From a virus (Duplodnaviria; Heunggongvirae; Uroviricota; Caudoviricetes): DNA of 7,045 nucleotides. How positions within the stretch are numbered: position 1 is the stretch's first letter; the number at the start of each line of letters is the position of its first letter. The notes below the pieces were generated by a model. The model did no database searches. It saw only the letters and a program-made list of their open reading frames with translations, and was not told the origin of the DNA. The position numbers were made by a program, and so were the translations under genes. The stretch lies in the IMG/VR virus record IMGVR_UViG_2547132277_000003. The stretch is one strand, 5' to 3'. Of this stretch, positions 1 to 7,045 are shown in pieces.

Positions 1-852
1 TTCCTGCGTGAAGCGCTGTTCCGGTGTCTGCCTGAACTGGCGAAGTTCTCGCCTGTCAGCAACGTCAGCCATCCACTGCTCCAGTAGCTGGTTAACATGG
101 GCGAAGCTGTCGAACCGGCGGTACCGGATGAAGAAGTTTTCCTTGAGGTATTTCACCATCCGTTCAACCTTACCTTTGGTTCTGGCCCTTCGTGGACGGC
201 AGGCCCGTGGCAGGAAGCCATAGTGATCGGCCAGCAGCAGGAACCCGGAGTTGAACACCACCTTCCCGTTGTTATTTTTCAGCACTGCGGCTTTCTGGTT
301 ATCGACCAGCACGGTTTTCACGCTACCGCCGAAGTAGCGAAAGGCGCGGACCAGTGACTCATAGGTATGTTCAGCATCCTGCTTTGGTGCCGCGAAGACA
401 TGGAAGCGACGTGAGAACCCCAGCGTATTAACCGCGAAGTTAACCCTGCATCGTTGCCCGGCAACCTCAGCCTCAACTTCTCCCCAGTCATGCTGTAGCT
501 GGTAACCGGGCTGAGTTTCGAAGCGAACCGTTTTCTTCGATGGCCGCATCTTACGTTTGGGCTGGATGTAGTAGCGCAACATGGAACGGCCACCGGTATA
601 ACCCATCGCTTTGATTTCCGCCAGGATGACCTCGCCGTTCCAGACGTTCTCAGCCAGACGCATATCTATATAGTCCATGAACGGCTTGAGTTTGGCCATT
701 TTGTGGCGTGTTTTTCTGGCCGGAGGTTCCGGGTATTTCAGGTACCGTCTGACGGTCCGTTCAGAGCAACCAACCTGAGTGGCAATATCAACAATATACG
801 CACCTTGCTGGCGCATTTGCTTTATCATGTAAAAATCCTCTCTGCTCAGCAT
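1..852 (-). CDS. istA: IS21-family transposase IstA, N-terminal ~284 aa (C-terminus beyond window)
   Basis: Manual minus-strand translation from ATG (complement of 850-852) gives MLSREDFYMIKQMRQQGAYIVDIATQVGCSERTVRRYLKY..., an N-terminal HTH. Further in are ...GYQLQHDWGEVEAEV... (first Asp of the DDE core) and ...RPRRARTKGKVERMVKYLKENFF..., all typical of IstA. The frame stays open to position 1 (last residues read ...VADRRELRQFRQTPEQRFTQE). It is absent from the ORF track only because no stop lies in the window. Confidence 0.85.
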   Translation of the reverse strand, partial: MLSREDFYMIKQMRQQGAYIVDIATQVGCSERTVRRYLKYPEPPARKTRHKMAKLKPFMDYIDMRLAENVWNGEVILAEIKAMGYTGGRSMLRYYIQPKRKMRPSKKTVRFETQPGYQLQHDWGEVEAEVAGQRCRVNFAVNTLGFSRRFHVFAAPKQDAEHTYESLVRAFRYFGGSVKTVLVDNQKAAVLKNNNGKVVFNSGFLLLADHYGFLPRACRPRRARTKGKVERMVKYLKENFFIRYRRFDSFAHVNQLLEQWMADVADRRELRQFRQTPEQRFTQE

Positions 853-953
853 GAGTGTTCCCTTTGTGGTGTAGGAACCTTAAGGAAACAACATGTTGGG
901 TGGAGCGGACAATCCAAATGGTGAATTACTGTCTTATATCATTGGCGCTGACA
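1..953 (-). mobile_element. IS21-family insertion sequence, left end plus 5' part of istA (partial; continues beyond window start)
   Basis: Contains the istA 5' region. On the minus strand a TG-initiated putative terminus TGTCAGCGCC (plus 944-953) lies 101 bp upstream of the istA start, and a related copy TGTCCGCTCC (plus 903-912) sits 41 bp inside it, matching the multiple-terminal-repeat layout of IS21-family ends. Boundary placement is inferred, not verified. Confidence 0.55.
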
Positions 954-1988: not shown

Positions 1989-2681
1989 TTAATTATGTCT
2001 CTTAAGGGTTTGCGACTGACTGATTAAGACCTTTCCAAAGACCATGAATCGGTGTTCGTTTTCGCTAGTAATTCCCCATTCACGGTAAATCTGGTTATCA
2101 GAAATCACCAGCAGTTTGTCAGGAATCATTTGAAGTCTTTTAACGTATATTTTGTCATCAAAACCAAAGACATATATACCATCACCATCAAACTGATTGA
2201 TGCTGACATCAACGAAGATGAGATCTCCGGGCTCAATGGTTGGACACATACTGTCCCCACGAACGTTGATAACTTTGATGTGATTGGCTGGTCGTCCGCC
2301 GAACATTGATACAGCATTATCAGTTCTGTATTCGATGGCATGAATCACATCAATGACATCACCGCCCTGGATAAGGCCATTTCCCGCACTGGCACTGATA
2401 TCCAGCATTTCAATACGGAACACATCCTTCACCTGCGCAACATCCTCATTATTACTGTTTTTATATACAGTATTACTTTTGTGGGCAGAGGTAAAGAGAT
2501 CAGCAATATCAACACCTAAGCTCTTGGCAATATTACTCAGTGTTTGTTCGGTAAATTGTTTTTGCTTACCCGTTTCTAAGCGCGAGATGTTCGCCGCATC
2601 TACTCCTATCGCTTCAGCGAGATCGGCGATTTTCATGTTCTTCGCTTGGCGAAGTTGTCTGACTCGGTTTCCTATGTTCAT
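1989..2681 (-). CDS. CI-type prophage repressor (N-terminal XRE-family HTH + C-terminal S24 LexA-like autopeptidase)
   Basis: 230 aa. N-terminus IGNRVRQLRQAKNMKIADLAEAIGVDAANISRLETGKQ is a classic HTH. The C-terminus carries the S24 signature GDSMCPTIEPGDLIFVD (Ser nucleophile) and IYVKRLQ (general-base Lys), with an Ala-Gly candidate cleavage site in DISASAGNG. The start has no Shine-Dalgarno and sits 6 nt after a -10-like hexamer. Confidence 0.9.
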   Translation of the reverse strand: MNIGNRVRQLRQAKNMKIADLAEAIGVDAANISRLETGKQKQFTEQTLSNIAKSLGVDIADLFTSAHKSNTVYKNSNNEDVAQVKDVFRIEMLDISASAGNGLIQGGDVIDVIHAIEYRTDNAVSMFGGRPANHIKVINVRGDSMCPTIEPGDLIFVDVSINQFDGDGIYVFGFDDKIYVKRLQMIPDKLLVISDNQIYREWGITSENEHRFMVFGKVLISQSQTLKRHN

Positions 2682-2778
2682 GCGTTTATTACATTTCTTT
2701 ATTGCGTGATAAGCAAATCAACTTGCGCAAAATAATTGCGTGAAATAACATGCATAACGCGCAATATTTGGAGGGCGT
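2682..2778. promoter_or_regulatory. divergent PRM/PR-like promoter-operator region between repressor and cro-like genes
   Basis: Candidate PR: -35 TTGCGC (2723-2728), 17 bp spacer, -10 TAACAT (2746-2751), then SD GGAGGG (2771-2776) before the cro-like ATG. Candidate PRM on the minus strand: -35 TTGCTT (plus 2711-2716), 17 bp spacer, -10 TGTAAT (plus 2688-2693), then 6 nt to the repressor ATG. Operator-like dyads: TTGCGTGATAAGCAA (2702-2716), the palindromic TTGCGCAA / CGCAA-N5-TTGCG cluster (2723-2740), and ATGCATAACGCGCAA (2749-2763). Confidence 0.6.
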
Positions 2779-3039
2779 ATGCAATCACCATTACGAAATG
2801 TGCGTAAGGCGCATGGTTTCACTTTGCAGCATGTTGCTGCGGGTGTTCAAGTCAATCCAGCGACGTTGAGTCGTATTGAGAGGCTGGAGCAGATTCCATC
2901 TATCGAGCTTGCAGAACGTTTAGCCAATTTTTTTAAGGGTGAAGTCAGCGAAATGCAGATTCTTTATCCGGCACGTTTTCAATCTAGCCAAAACCAGAAT
3001 GGGTTTAAACCACAGGAACAGGAGGTGAACCGTGGGTAA
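2779..3039 (+). CDS. Cro-like HTH transcriptional regulator (XRE family)
   Basis: 86 aa, divergent from the repressor, strong SD GGAGGG 3 nt... upstream of the ATG at 2779 (2771-2776). HTH segment GFTLQHVAAGVQVNPATLSRIERLEQ. Its 3' end overlaps the next gene by 8 bp. Confidence 0.8.
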   Translation: MQSPLRNVRKAHGFTLQHVAAGVQVNPATLSRIERLEQIPSIELAERLANFFKGEVSEMQILYPARFQSSQNQNGFKPQEQEVNRG

Positions 3040-3583
3040 GCATCACTGGAAAGTAGAAAAACAGCCTGAGTGGTACGTGAAAGCTGTCAGAAAAACTATC
3101 GCAGCGTTGCCGGGGGGGTACGCTGAAGCTGCTGACTGGCTGGATGTAACAGAGAACGCATTATTTAACCGCCTTCGTGCCGATGGCGATCAGATTTTCC
3201 CGCTGGGATGGGCAATGATTTTGCAACGTGCTGGTGGAACTCACTTCATTGCTGACGCTGTGGCGCAGTCTGCAAATGGCGTCTTTGTGTCTCTTCCTGA
3301 TGTCGAGGATGTGGACAACGCCGATATCAACCAACGCCTGCTGGAGGTCATTGAACAGATCGGCAGTTATTCAAAACAGATTCGTTCAGCAATCGAAGAC
3401 GGTGTAGTGGAACCGCATGAGAAAACTGCAATTAACGACGAGCTATATCTCTCAATTTCGAAGCTGCAGGAGCATGCAGCACTGGTCTACAAAATCTTTT
3501 GCATTTCAGAAAGTAATGACGCCCGCGAGTGTGCAGCTCCGGGCGCCGTGGCGTGTCGTGACTGTGGAGAAACTAACGCATGA
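3032..3583 (+). CDS. phage CII-like regulatory protein (CP76-type, ~183 aa)
   Basis: GTG start at 3032 preceded by AGGAGGT (3019-3025). Position immediately after cro and its size fit the enterobacterial prophage CII-like (CP76) family. The family call is from memory of that family and is not verified; the C-terminus has a Cys cluster [13 protein letters not shown]. Confidence 0.65.
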
Positions 3584-3918
3584 ACAGTTTAACAACACAC
3601 TACCGTCGCTCGCAACTGATTGCGCTTCCTGTACCGGGTGGAAAAGCGAAGGTGGAGTATTGCTATGCAGTAAATGTACCAGGTGACAGGGAAATTGTAA
3701 CCCACAGCTTTGCAGAGTGGGCTGTGGGTGATTTCAACCGGCAGAAGGAGACAGTCCTTTGCGACAAGTTAACCGCTGGTTCAAAGATCACTACGGAGTG
3801 CCCGTCAGAGTCATTCGTTGGGAACCGGAAACACAACGGGTTATCTACCTCCGCGAAGGCTATGAGCATGAGTGCTTCAGTCCGCTCGAACAGTTTCGTC
3901 GTAAATTCAGGGAAATAG
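3580..3918 (+). CDS. hypothetical protein (112 aa); frame is uncertain in its 3' half
   Basis: ATG at 3580 overlaps the CII-like stop (ATGA) and has GGAG 9-10 nt upstream. The N-terminal ~57 codons look protein-like, but the 3' half ([48 protein letters not shown]) is Ser/Thr-rich and reads like an out-of-frame translation. Confidence 0.3.
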
Positions 3919-3938
3919 AGGTCGGTCATGAGCACTAA
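3759..3938 (+). CDS. hypothetical small protein (59 aa, TTG start), alternative frame to the 3' half of 3580-3918
   Basis: Manual translation in the third frame: (M)[58 protein letters not shown]. Balanced, aromatic- and charge-rich composition. A perfect SD AAGGAG (3745-3750) lies 8 nt before TTG at 3759. Missed by the ORF track, probably because of its short length. Confidence 0.35.
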
Positions 3939-4869
3939 ATTAACCGGCTATGTATGGGATGGTTGCGCAGCGTCAGGCATGAAATTATCCAGCGTGGCAA
4001 TTATGGCCCGCCTGGCTGATTTCAGTAATGACGAAGGTGTGTGCTGGCCATCAATTGAAACCATTGCCCGTCAGATTGGCGCGGGGATGAGTACCGTCAG
4101 AACGGCTATCGCACGGCTGGAAGCAGAAGGCTGGTTAACGCGTAAGGCGCGTCGCCAGGGTAACCGCAATGCGTCGAATGTTTATCAGCTTAACGTTGCG
4201 AAGCTTCAGGCAGCGGCATTTTCTCAACTGTCAGATTCTGACCCGTCAAAATCTGACGCATCAAAATCTGACCCGTCAAAATTTGATGCGTCGAAATCTG
4301 GCAAAAAAGCGGGTTTTCACCCGTCAGAATCTGGCGGGGATCCGTCAGTAAAATCAAAACATGATCCGTCAGATAAAAAAACTTCTCGTCCGGACGCTTC
4401 GCAACCGGACACGCAGACGGCTGAACAGGAGTTTTTAACTCGCCATCCTGATGCGGTTGTATTCAGCCCTAAAAAGCGCCAGTGGGGAACGCAGGATGAT
4501 TTGACCTGCGCACAGTGGCTCTGGAAAAAAATCATCGCCCTGTACGAGCAGGCCGCCGAATGTGACGGCGAGGTGGTTCGTCCCAAAGAACCGAACTGGA
4601 CAGCCTGGGCAAACGAAATTCGCCTGATGTGTGTGCAGGATGGTCGTACTCATAAACAAATCTGCGAGATGTACAGCCGCGTCAGTCGCGATCCGTTCTG
4701 GTGCCGTAACGTGCTCAGCCCGTCGAAGCTGCGGGAAAAATGGGATGAGCTTTCCCTGCGCTTATCGCCGTCCGTCAGCACGTACACCGAAAAACGCGAA
4801 GACCCGTACTTCAAAGCCAGTTACGACAACGTGGACTACAGCCAGATCCCGGCAGGATTCAGGGGGTGA
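3928..4869 (+). CDS. phage replication initiation protein, O-like (N-terminal winged-HTH domain, iteron-encoded linker, C-terminal domain)
   Basis: 313 aa, SD GAGGT (3918-3922) 5 nt before the ATG. N-terminus VWDGCAASGMKLSSVAIMARLADFSNDEGVCWPSIETIARQIGAGMSTVRTAIARLEAEGWL resembles the HTH of prophage replication initiators. The central low-complexity linker (SDSDPSKSDASKSDPSKFDASKS...) is encoded by tandem DNA repeats, as in lambda O where the origin lies inside the gene. Confidence 0.8.
   Translation: MSTKLTGYVWDGCAASGMKLSSVAIMARLADFSNDEGVCWPSIETIARQIGAGMSTVRTAIARLEAEGWLTRKARRQGNRNASNVYQLNVAKLQAAAFSQLSDSDPSKSDASKSDPSKFDASKSGKKAGFHPSESGGDPSVKSKHDPSDKKTSRPDASQPDTQTAEQEFLTRHPDAVVFSPKKRQWGTQDDLTCAQWLWKKIIALYEQAAECDGEVVRPKEPNWTAWANEIRLMCVQDGRTHKQICEMYSRVSRDPFWCRNVLSPSKLREKWDELSLRLSPSVSTYTEKREDPYFKASYDNVDYSQIPAGFRG
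4228..4380. repeat. iteron-like tandem repeats (putative phage replication origin) inside the O-like gene
   Basis: Five contiguous 15-bp units at 4228-4302 (cTGTCAGATTCTGAC, CCGTCAAAATCTGAC, GCATCAAAATCTGAC, CCGTCAAAATTTGAT, GCGTCGAAATCTGGC), then further CCGTCAG-initiated copies at 4321, 4342 and 4366. Each unit has internal dyad symmetry (GTCAGA / TCTGAC). A moderately A-rich stretch (4343-4381) follows. Confidence 0.6.
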
Positions 4870-4871
4870 GC

Positions 4872-5360
4872 ATGAGTCTTTTGAATGACGTTCAGAAATT
4901 CATTGAAGCCCATCCGGGCTGTACTTCCGGAGATATTGCGGATGCTTTTGCCGGTTACTCACGGCAGCGCGTTCTGCAGTCAGCAAGCAAGTTACGTCAG
5001 AGTGGGCGTGTGGCTCACCGTTGTGAAGGAGATACACGCAGACATTTCCCGCGCCTGACTGAGAGAGCGCAGGAACCGGAACCACAACCAGTTCGTGAAA
5101 CCAGACCTGTGCGCAATTTCTATGTCGGCACTAACGATCCCCGTGTGATTTTGTGCCTGACCCGCCAGGCGGAAGAACTGGAGTCCAGGGGCTTATACCG
5201 TCGTGCTGCAACCGTGTGGATGGCGGCATTCCGTGAAAGCCACTCCCAGCCAGAACGAAACAATTTTCTGACGCGTCGTGAGCGGTGCTTACGGAAAAGC
5301 AGCAAGCGCGCTGCATCGGGTGAAGAGTGGTATCTGTCAGGGAATTACGTGGGGGCTTAA
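4872..5360 (+). CDS. PerC-family (Pch-like) transcriptional regulator with an N-terminal winged-helix-like extension
   Basis: ATG at 4872 preceded by AGGGGG (4861-4866); an alternative GTG at 4866 overlaps the upstream stop. The C-terminal half contains ...AEELESRGLYRRAATVWMAAF...RRERCLRK..., matching the signature I associate with PerC/Pch activators. Family call is from memory and not verified. Confidence 0.55.
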   Translation: MSLLNDVQKFIEAHPGCTSGDIADAFAGYSRQRVLQSASKLRQSGRVAHRCEGDTRRHFPRLTERAQEPEPQPVRETRPVRNFYVGTNDPRVILCLTRQAEELESRGLYRRAATVWMAAFRESHSQPERNNFLTRRERCLRKSSKRAASGEEWYLSGNYVGA

Positions 5361-6013
5361 TGAGTAATAAATATTGCCAGGCGCTGGTGGAACTGCGGAA
5401 CAAACCAGCCCATGAACTGAAGGAAGTGGGCGATCAGTGGCGCACGCCGGACAACATTTTCTGGGGAATTAACACCCTGTTTGGCCCGTTTGTTCTGGAT
5501 CTGTTCACTGACGGTGATAACGCCAAATGTGCCGCGTATTACACGGCGGAAGACAACGCGCTGGCGCATGACTGGTCAGAACGTCTTGCGGAGCTTAAAG
5601 GTGCTGCCTTTGGTAATCCCCCATACAGCCGCGCCAGTCAGCATGAGGGGCAATACATCACCGGCATGCGTTACATCATGAAACATGCCAGTGCCATGCG
5701 TGATAAGGGCGGGCGCTATGTTTTCCTGATCAAAGCTGCCACCAGCGAAGTGTGGTGGCCGGAAGATGCAGATCATATTGCTTTTATTCGCGGGCGTATT
5801 GGTTTTGAACTGCCTGTCTGGTTTATCCCGAAAGACGAGAAGCAGGTACCGACAGGAGCTTTTTTCGCTGGTGCTATTGCTGTTTTTGACAAGACCTGGA
5901 AGGGACCGGCAATCAGCTACATCGGGCGCGATGAACTTGAGGCATGTGGTGAGGCGTTTCTGGCGCAGGTTCGCCAGCAGGCGGAAAAACTGGTCAGGGA
6001 GATGGCGGCATGA
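5360..6013 (+). CDS. phage-type DNA N6-adenine methyltransferase (Dam family), orphan with no adjacent restriction gene
   Basis: Catalytic motif IV AAFGNPPYSR is present, with upstream DQWRTPDNIF and VLDLFTDGDNAKCAAYYTAEDNAL typical of phage Dam-type enzymes. Start chosen at ATG 5360 (TAATG overlap with the upstream stop); an in-frame GTG at 5327 is an alternative. Confidence 0.85.
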   Translation: MSNKYCQALVELRNKPAHELKEVGDQWRTPDNIFWGINTLFGPFVLDLFTDGDNAKCAAYYTAEDNALAHDWSERLAELKGAAFGNPPYSRASQHEGQYITGMRYIMKHASAMRDKGGRYVFLIKAATSEVWWPEDADHIAFIRGRIGFELPVWFIPKDEKQVPTGAFFAGAIAVFDKTWKGPAISYIGRDELEACGEAFLAQVRQQAEKLVREMAA

Positions 6014-6336
6014 CGACGTTAACTCAATGCCAGCAGCAGGTGCTGGATATGCTGATTTCTTATCAGAAAGAACGTGGCTTCCCGCCAACCAATCAGGAGG
6101 TGGCAACCATGCTGGGATACCGTTCGGTGAATGCAGCGGTGGAGCATCTTCGCGCACTGGAGAAAAAAGGCGTCATCACGATAAAGCGTGGCGTGGCCCG
6201 GGGGATAACGCTTCATACCGCGGTGAAGGACGACGACAGCGAGGCGGTCGGGATTATCCGCGCACTGCTTGCCGGTGAGGAAAACGCAAGGCTGCGTGCA
6301 ACCCACTGGTTACATGAGAGGGACCTGAAAGTATGA
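6010..6336 (+). CDS. LexA-like DNA-binding-domain-only protein (winged HTH, no S24 peptidase domain)
   Basis: 108 aa. LTQCQQQVLDMLISYQKERGFPPTNQEVATMLGYRSVNAAVEHLRALEKKGVITIKRGVARGITL parallels the LexA N-terminal domain (LTARQQEVFDLI...[36 protein letters not shown]...) but the protein ends about 35 residues later with no Ser/Lys dyad. ATGA overlap with the Dam stop. Confidence 0.75.
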   Translation: MTTLTQCQQQVLDMLISYQKERGFPPTNQEVATMLGYRSVNAAVEHLRALEKKGVITIKRGVARGITLHTAVKDDDSEAVGIIRALLAGEENARLRATHWLHERDLKV

Positions 6337-6614
6337 AGCTGATCCTGCCTTTTCCGCCCAGCGTGAACACGTACTGGCGACACCCCAACAAAGGGGCGTT
6401 TGCTGGTAAGAGCCTGATAAGCGCGGCGGGGCGAAAATTCCAGAGCGCGGCGTGCGCAGCAATAGTTGAGCAGTTACGTCGTCTGCCGAAACCAACGTCG
6501 GCACCTGCTTCAGTGGAGATCGTGTTGTTTCCTCCGGATAGACGGGATGGAAAACCGCCGCCATCGCCTGAACTGGGAAATGAGCCGGGACAGGTGTTTG
6601 CGGCTTGGCAGTAA
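6333..6614 (+). pseudogene. rusA: RusA-family Holliday-junction resolvase, C-terminally disrupted (catalytic Asp region missing)
   Basis: N-terminus MKLILPFPPSVNTYWRHPNKG matches the RusA signature (E. coli RusA LPWPPSNNRYYRHNRG). Similarity continues through ...VEIVLFPPDRR, but the expected RRDLDN...K...D catalytic segment is replaced by DGKPPPSPELGNEPGQVFAAWQ-stop. No alternative frame in 6538-6660 restores it. ATGA overlap with the upstream gene. Confidence 0.55.
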
Positions 6615-6650
6615 CCGGCTCATTTAAACCGTCTGGTCTGTTTCCTCCGG
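6526..6650. repeat. 12-bp exact direct repeat TGTTTCCTCCGG (6526-6537 and 6639-6650) flanking ~101 bp at the rusA breakpoint
   Basis: Seen directly in the sequence. The first copy lies within rusA codons just before homology is lost; the second lies 44 bp upstream of the right-hand transposase start. Confidence 0.6.
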
Positions 6651-6693
6651 CTCTACAAAAATAATGTCCATCATTTTTAATGGACACTATCGT

Positions 6694-7045
6694 ATGAAAC
6701 ACCGGACCTGGATCACTGAAGCTTTACGTCTTCACTTTGAAGAACATTTACCCCGGGTTGTGGCCGGGCGTCGCCTGGGTGTACCAAAATCAACAGTTTG
6801 TAGTATGTTCGTGCGCTTTCGGAGAGCTGGCCTTTCGTGGCCTTTGCCCGCAGGCATGTCGGAGCAGGAACTTGATGCCTGCCTTTACGGACAATTTTCC
6901 ACGATACCAGTCGTACGTCCTGAAAGCACCGTTATATCCGAAGCCCCCGTGGTAAAAAAACGTCCCCGGCGGCCCAACTTCCCTTATGAGTTTAAAATCG
7001 CCTTAGTGGAGCAGTCACTGCAGCCCGGAGCCTGTGTGGCGCAGA
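6694..7045 (+). CDS. IS transposase, N-terminal part with two HTH regions (family uncertain, IS3-family OrfA-like; partial, runs off window end)
   Basis: Manual translation from ATG 6694: MKHRTWITEALRLHFEEHLPRVVAGRRLGVPKSTVCSMFVRFRRAGLSWPLPAGMSEQELDACLYGQFSTIPVVRPESTVISEAPVVKKRPRRPNFPYEFKIALVEQSLQPGACVAQ..., no stop before the window end. The second HTH resembles IS2-type OrfA ([25 protein letters not shown]). It differs from the left-hand IstA, so the two flanking elements are different. Confidence 0.6.
   Translation, partial: MKHRTWITEALRLHFEEHLPRVVAGRRLGVPKSTVCSMFVRFRRAGLSWPLPAGMSEQELDACLYGQFSTIPVVRPESTVISEAPVVKKRPRRPNFPYEFKIALVEQSLQPGACVAQ

Follow-up and report, generated by a model that had tools for sequence, protein, structure and literature searches.

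We examined positions 4872-6614 of a 7,045-nucleotide (nt) stretch of viral DNA (IMG/VR record IMGVR_UViG_2547132277_000003, Caudoviricetes), the whole of which is called the window here. A first-pass annotation had described this interval as four consecutive genes (PerC-like, Dam, LexA-like and RusA-like) that are joined by overlapping stop and start codons and include an orphan Dam methyltransferase. That observation holds for all but the fourth gene: the orphan methylase and the compact operon stand, and together they form a module of a dead prophage that was already annotated. The interval contains the following features.

4872..5360, + strand: YfdN, PerC family, 162 amino acids (aa) (Pfam PerC; phrog_1324 'transcriptional activator', 2.8e-78; annotated yfdN)
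5360..6013, + strand: orphan phage Dam, predicted N6-adenine methyltransferase, 217 aa (Pfam Dam PF05869; TIGR01712)
6010..6336, + strand: LexA-type winged-helix DNA-binding domain with a tail of ~40 aa, 108 aa in all (Pfam LexA_DNA_bind)
6333..6540, + strand: 5' fragment of rusA, codons 1-69 of 129, pseudogene (annotated partial; phrog_34, 7e-23)

The three stop-start overlaps were found exactly where they had been described. The TAA at 5358-5360 shares its final A with the ATG of dam (5360-5362), the ATG at 6010-6012 overlaps the TGA at 6011-6013, and the ATG at 6333-6335 overlaps the TGA at 6334-6336. Tight packing does not start at 4872 but already begins upstream of the interval. The replication gene ends in a TGA at 4867-4869, which is 2 nt before the ATG at 4872 used as the start of the homologous orf40 in phage SfV, or overlaps yfdN by 4 nt if YfdN starts at the GTG at 4866 that was chosen by PGAP. 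The names given to the genes were sound in part. Pfam supports the PerC and Dam labels and the LexA DNA-binding domain, whereas the RusA-like open reading frame (ORF) at 6333-6614 is not an intact gene.

The methylase gene is complete. Its uninterrupted ORF (5360-6013) equals SfV Dam in length and has, as first noticed, an intact NPPY motif (residues 86-89, nt 5615-5626). The Dam label is confirmed by PF05869 (E 9.7e-46; 156 bits, cutoff 28.1; profile positions 3-167/169), and the match to TIGR01712, phage N-6-adenine-methyltransferase, is an equivalog match (256.5 bits against a cutoff of 97.05; positions 1-165/165). SfV Dam (AAL89443) is identical to the window protein at 216/217 residues (99.5%), the sole difference being one C-terminal residue, and in the SfV GenBank record its gene is named dam, with the product 'DNA adenine methylase', and is given a weak putative -35/-10 upstream of it (window ~5269-5295). 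A REBASE-derived PADLOC model, MTase_II (PDLC03263), was covered over 217/217 positions. We rejected an alternative start for dam, the GTG at 5327: for the Klebsiella homologue an upstream extension is not possible, and translation starts at the corresponding ATG.

Three RefSeq phage records (NC_003444, NC_019716 and NC_021857) call Dam a 'phosphoadenosine phosphosulfate reductase'. The likely source is phrog_33262, which is so named and has 495 positions, of which 283-492 match Dam; the label looks like an annotation-transfer error.

According to the first-pass annotation, the target site of the methylase could not be inferred from sequence. We disagree: GATC can be inferred because of the near-identity to SfV Dam, the TIGR01712 equivalog match and the GATC-targeting relative M.EcoVT2Dam, a characterised family member whose target is reported (PMC6602927). 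On these grounds we have good confidence that the window Dam would methylate GATC. Experiments by Allison et al. in 2002 reportedly confirmed SfV orf-41 as a Dam methylase gene, and our search of the open full-text literature found no paper restating the SfV Dam assay. The prophage part of the window shows no avoidance or enrichment of GATC itself (19 sites observed, 21.7 expected).

A specificity other or broader than GATC, which would give wide anti-restriction protection as with M.EcoGII, seems quite unlikely to us. Relaxed prophage adenine methylases exist (PMC5778455), as does the Serratia phage OS31 enzyme (PMC7556043), and digests with GATC enzymes would miss extra sites. Searching PDB sequences with Dam returned no match even at E<=1; with no solved structure of the family found by sequence search, target recognition cannot be modelled from known complexes. 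On the other side, M.EcoGII is a member of another family (a beta-class enzyme of 349 aa in which the DPPY motif comes first; PMC5778455), while the window Dam is an equivalog match to TIGR01712, is one C-terminal residue away from SfV Dam and has a GATC-specific relative in M.EcoVT2Dam.

The description of the methylase as an orphan was borne out well beyond the window. The chromosome NZ_CP024232.1, from enterotoxigenic Escherichia coli (ETEC) O6:H16 strain 2014EL-1346-6, matches all 7045 nt of the window at 100% and is taken as its source. For 15 kb to either side on this chromosome the annotation lists no restriction endonuclease, nor is one annotated in the related prophage of ETEC H10407 or in the whole SfV genome, and the sole nuclease nearby in relatives is an HNH protein beside the terminase. 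The idea that the methylase is left over from a restriction-modification system, with the endonuclease just beyond the window, could draw only on the fact that Type II methylases are generally paired with endonucleases and on the PADLOC model name 'MTase_II'. It is refuted at the annotation level by the same three contexts, and we give it practically no chance.

The first-pass annotation had also held that the absence of a new methylated motif on expression would count against the methylase. For a GATC enzyme in a Dam+ host this is the expected outcome and cannot refute activity. Since a phage GATC Dam adds no new motif in such a host, methylome screens of the native strain cannot test its activity.

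We next consider whether the overlaps carry meaning of their own, as they had been said to imply tight translational coupling. Co-transcription and some coupling are plausible, but overlaps are no mark of a special co-functional set. Of the 50 same-strand junctions in the complete SfV genome, 27 overlap, and 15/50 do so by exactly 1 or 4 nt. There are two runs of three 1- or 4-nt junctions, one in the tail genes and the other in the PerC-Dam-LexA-RusA block, and shuffling the junction labels of SfV gave a run of at least three in 65% of trials. Because runs of three are so frequent in shuffles, the overlap pattern is no more than chance would produce in such genomes.

Scanning the + strand from 2600 to 6700 revealed no promoter-like or terminator-like site except a weak stem-loop at 2798-2815. 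With all genes on one strand and no internal promoter or terminator predicted, co-transcription and some translational coupling are therefore plausible. From this layout we regard co-transcription of the four ORFs as well supported and termination-reinitiation coupling at the junctions as plausible. Each start in the cluster has its own purine-rich Shine-Dalgarno-like stretch. Ribosomes ending one ORF could restart on the next, which would amount to ordinary operon compaction and not to a purpose-built four-gene machine.

One natural variant touches on this point. In phage cdtI (L006 1580-1675) the PerC-like gene has an in-frame internal deletion that leaves a 30-codon ORF, still ending in TAATG over the dam start. 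This remnant could hint that dam translation may gain from a translated upstream ORF, although an in-frame outcome has a chance of 1 in 3.

Is the set nonetheless a dedicated system, for example for anti-restriction, epigenetic or SOS control, in which the overlaps enforce stoichiometric co-expression? Its conservation might suggest so. Across 68 phage records, among them SfV, SfII, mEp460 and a large number of Stx2 phages, the block at 4872-6548 shows 95-99.8% identity, and among complete E. coli genomes it is present at >=80% coverage in 1635/5426 (about 30%), with some part of it in 2682. Gene order and overlaps are thus kept in many phages, and the cdtI remnant keeps its TAATG ahead of dam. 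This conservation, however, reflects recent common descent and not independent retention, and in variants and diverged relatives each gene is lost or swapped singly while the overlap is remade with the new neighbour.

Several cases illustrate the latter pattern. The dam gene is absent exactly from SfIV (L005 2925-2940), Ayreon, 2H10, some Stx2c phages and many E. coli genomes. In SfIV the PerC-like gene ends ...GGGGCGTAATGACGACG..., where TAATGA joins it directly to the LexA-like gene, a junction also present in many E. coli genomes; dam is thus a 650-bp presence/absence cassette between the ATGA tetranucleotides at 5360 and 6010. In the Salmonella phages ST64B and 'S.Typ Adana', PerC is followed by a 297-aa Dam and then RusA, and the LexA-like gene is absent. 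In a Klebsiella phage a 65%-identical Dam sits between unrelated genes, again with ATGA overlaps. By this pattern the genes are independently exchangeable cassettes in a classic lambdoid mosaic. The Salmonella Dam (ST64B sb44, L013 5328-6221; L007 2501-3394) also differs in a C-terminal extension of ~80 aa, located where the phages of E. coli and Shigella have the LexA-like gene.

E. coli genomes commonly have versions without dam, the unrelated tail genes of SfV overlap just as often, and no PADLOC defence family covers the four-gene set. A dedicated co-functional system is in our view very unlikely. The 'functionally mixed set' of the first description results from this mosaic cassette pattern and does not speak for joint function.

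The exception in the gene set is rusA. Intact RusA (129 aa in H10407 and SfV) is identical to the window ORF only to Asp69 (nt 6540), after which the ORF is unrelated read-through, running out of frame through a 70-nt integrase fragment to a stop (TAA 6612-6614) in the left inverted repeat of an IS66-family insertion sequence (IS). Two further features therefore lie across the right end of the interval.

6541..6610, + strand: start of an N-terminally truncated tyrosine-integrase gene (frame differs from that of rusA; deletion junction)
6611..7045, + strand: left end of the IS66-family element (inverted repeat from 6611, tnpA from 6664; NF038385 IS66 TnpA, 9.8e-46)

The catalytic Asp residues of RusA lie in the C-terminal half of the protein. 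Pfam found no match in the window ORF at 6333-6614, and the intact RusA of H10407 matches PF05866 at 6e-15. In the window rusA is a truncated pseudogene.

The insertion element was considered as the cause of the truncation and rejected. The break lies at 6540/6541, and the IS begins at 6611 with its own 8-bp target duplication, GCTTGGCA, at 6603-6610 and again right after the right end (L002 24310-24317). When reverse-complemented, the right end of the IS (...GAGTCGCTTAC) is similar to its left end (GTAACCGGCTC...), and matches to plasmid copies of the IS66-family element begin at 6599-6607. Strain FDAARGOS_1077 has the same rusA'-'int fusion without interruption, in an ORF that matches Phage_integrase at 5.5e-35 (L004 11340-12387), and on the source chromosome the integrase reading frame resumes across the IS. 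IS66 was not the truncating event because the IS-free strain has the same fusion. As read from these junctions, the order of events is a deletion that fused rusA to the integrase of a neighbouring island, followed by insertion of IS66 70 nt downstream. This island, to which the integrase part of the fusion belongs, also holds an anti-phage gene, Avs2 (AVAST type 2), about 3.5 kb past the right edge of the window (L002 25531-29985).

The rest of the window shows the setting of the module. Upstream of yfdN lie the following genes.

1989..2681, - strand: cI-type repressor (HTH_3/HTH_26 and Peptidase_S24, 6e-19, Pfam)
2779..3039, + strand: cro-like HTH gene, first of the early-right (PR) operon (Pfam HTH_3, 5e-10; placed as cro of SfV/SfII)
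3032..3583, + strand: CII-like regulator, YmfL (Pfam Phage_CP76, 1.5e-13; annotated ymfL; 8-nt overlap with cro)
3759..3938, + strand: small DUF4222 ORF (ORF list and RefSeq annotation; 11-nt overlap with the replication gene)
3928..4869, + strand: replication initiator, O-like/DnaD-like winged-helix (Pfam HTH_36, 4e-11, and weak DnaD_N; annotated in phages as replication protein O)

On the source chromosome the prophage remnant that holds the window adjoins proA and thrW, a tRNA-Thr gene. Its left part consists of integrase, yfdT, yfdR, yfdQ, yfdP, ISEc62 (window 1-952) and the cI-type repressor. Rightward it continues with cro, the CII-like ymfL, DUF4222, the replication initiator, yfdN, phage Dam, a 'LexA family' gene and partial rusA. 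At the same site in ETEC H10407, an intact relative goes on with KilA-N, DUF968, Q, lysis genes, terminase, portal and HK97-type head genes. Q and the lysis and virion genes are gone from the source-strain prophage, and ISEc62 and IS66 elements flank the remnant. Lacking these genes, the prophage is unable to make phage. The immunity region is SfII-type and not SfV-type, with 99.4% DNA identity to SfII across cI/cro, and the cI-type repressor is presumed to control the rightward operon with the cluster.

ISEc62 itself, an IS21-family element (L002 13886-15952), breaks the early-left region in the source strain. It is absent from close relatives (strain E8 and others), in which the match begins at window 953. 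Within the replication-initiator gene a 15-bp unit (TCTGACCCGTCAAAA) is repeated 4.3 times at 4237-4300 and codes for SDPSK/SDASK peptide repeats; the units probably serve as iterons of the origin, comparable to the ori within lambda O. The window gave no match in Rfam or tRNA scans. The alternative-frame and antisense ORFs that fall in the interval, at 5576-6157(-), 6310-6702(-), 5131-5403(-), 6019-6306(-) and 5766-6278(+), matched no Pfam family and were treated as mechanical ORFs.

For two proteins of the module, the family match covers only part of the sequence. YfdN matches PF06069 PerC (E 5.6e-9; 36.6 bits, cutoff 22.6) over residues 100-151 only, corresponding to profile positions 5-56/90, and a putative role as a transcriptional activator (e.g. 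of ler) is annotation that comes with the family name. The PerC-like region of YfdN (residues ~98-144) also matches ANR (AraC negative regulator) NF033650 at E 2.8e-5, under the family cutoff, which hints that the PerC and ANR small regulators may be related.

'LexA-like' is likewise correct for the DNA-binding domain but not for the protein as a whole, which has no S24 self-cleaving and dimerisation domain. The 108-aa protein matches PF01726 (E 2.9e-19) over positions 1-65/65 and aligns to E. coli LexA at residues 2-86 only (E about 1e-15). Its recognition helix, RSVNAAVEHLRAL, is largely identical to that of E. coli LexA, including S39, N41, A42 and E45, residues that act in recognition in LexA-DNA structures. 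Pfam found no Peptidase_S24 match in it, and TIGR00498 scores 70.6 against a cutoff of 110.95 over profile positions 1-91/203 only. With the S24 domain absent and TIGR00498 below its cutoff, the protein is no LexA orthologue and only carries a LexA DNA-binding domain. A stretch 'LLAGE' is kept in it (window 6250-6280, residues ~81-90), aligned with the LexA self-cleavage site VAA^GE.

A perfect 20-bp LexA/SOS box, TACTGTTTTTATATACAGTA (TACTGT-N8-ACAGTA), lies at 2453-2472 in the variable linker of the cI gene on the minus strand; by chance the window would be expected to hold ~0.0004 matches to its 12 fixed bases. Among the cI homologues of mEp460 (93% DNA identity), ST64B (77%) and Klebsiella P7641 (70%), TACTGT and ACAGT do not vary, while the cI linker around them changes among homologues, down to the encoded amino acids. 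Conservation of the box amid varying flanking codons and residues points to selection on the DNA site. The box may act as a LexA-controlled promoter inside the gene, as an antisense promoter or as a roadblock, and a limited literature search found no paper describing an SOS box inside cI.

These two observations invite the idea that the LexA-domain protein is an uncleavable LexA mimic that re-occupies SOS boxes after induction or infection, including the box in its own cI. If true, such a mimic would rewire the host SOS response and cI expression. The shared recognition-helix residues and the alignment to LexA 2-86 would fit this, as would a perfect box in the phage's own cI that is conserved in homologues down to 70% DNA identity. 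Without its dimerisation domain, the N-terminal domain of LexA binds DNA weakly. Co-occurrence of the LexA-like gene with the cI box was examined and rejected, as ST64B and Klebsiella P7641 have the box and no LexA-like gene. Host LexA suffices there and is the simplest binder, so a link to the phage protein is speculative, and we hold the mimic to be unlikely. In a weaker variant of the idea, the conserved box alone may mark an undescribed LexA-controlled element within cI.

Most of this arrangement is found in known phages. In SfV the block orf40-dam(orf41)-orf42-orf43 (U82619) has the same genes, order and overlaps, as do SfII, mEp460 and Stx2a/Stx2c phages. Its DNA is 97.9% identical over 4872-6548, and it likewise follows the replication gene in the PR operon. 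The window differs from SfV in that rusA is cut at codon 69, the downstream genes are lost, immunity is SfII-type and the remnant is flanked by IS elements. In the cryptic K-12 prophage CPS-53 (KpLE1), yfdM is the same methylase gene, and identity is ~97% across yfdN and the module's first ~760 nt. The K-12-type yfdM stops at about window 5626, just past the NPPY codons, to give ~90 aa, whereas the window gene is full-length at 217 aa. A study of YfdM describes it as a 'putative Dam methylase' that promotes production of the T1-type phage SW1 (bioRxiv 10.1101/413146).

M.EcoVT2Dam (VT2-Sakai/933W) and the small Dam enzymes of T1 and HP1 share the Pfam family PF05869 and orphan status with the window Dam. 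In VT2-Sakai the gene lies in the nin region of a lambdoid PR operon and, like the window dam, has ATGA overlaps with both neighbours. The two proteins are 31% identical over 143 residues and differ in length (175 and 217 aa), and the VT2-Sakai neighbours are NinB and NinE. In lambda, the nin region holds small unrelated accessory genes between the replication genes and Q, with ATGA/TAATG junctions. ATGA-type packing of this kind is seen in VT2-Sakai and SfV, and the window differs only in gene content. Host Dam (EcoKDam, alpha class) is likewise an orphan with N6-adenine GATC methylation, the activity predicted for the window Dam, but it belongs to a different family. The GATC specificity common to bacterial Dam and most phage Dam-like enzymes has been described as convergent (PMC5537653).

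Taken together, 4872-6614 is very probably the replication or 'nin-like' part of the PR operon of a lambdoid prophage of the SfV/SfII/CPS-53 type, compact and ordinary, with a GATC Dam. Several points weigh against this interpretation or parts of it. The GATC call leans on near-identity to SfV Dam, for which an assay is reported, and on more distant characterised relatives, and a restriction-protection assay would miss extra, relaxed sites. The biological role of phage Dam is still called not well understood (PMC7556043). RNA folding at the four junctions was no better than in shuffles (z -1.06 to +1.31), and with no unusual junction structure nothing points to obligate coupling.

In a functional phage of this type, inactivation of the cI-type repressor by infection or SOS induction would yield one mRNA from PR spanning the cluster. 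For the virion DNA of lambda and P22, the supply of host Dam is limiting (PMC8022706). The phage Dam would top up this limiting activity, so that fast-replicating phage DNA would become fully GATC-methylated. Full methylation would in turn shield the DNA from MutH and from enzymes whose cutting at GATC is sensitive to methylation, and would sustain those phage functions that depend on Dam. In the dead prophage of the source strain, the cluster would at most be expressed as an SOS-inducible relic.

The module is ordinary and already known from GenBank and RefSeq annotation, and its methylase is said to have been characterised in SfV two decades ago by Allison et al. (2002). It is of little discovery value in itself, and the conserved LexA box in cI, which lies outside the interval, may deserve follow-up. 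The locus also shows that a complete-looking ORF can turn out to be chimeric, made up of a truncated gene, a fragment of a neighbouring gene and the end of an IS. In the early operons of phages such as these, stop/start overlaps are the default, and they mark the boundaries of cassettes and not functional units.

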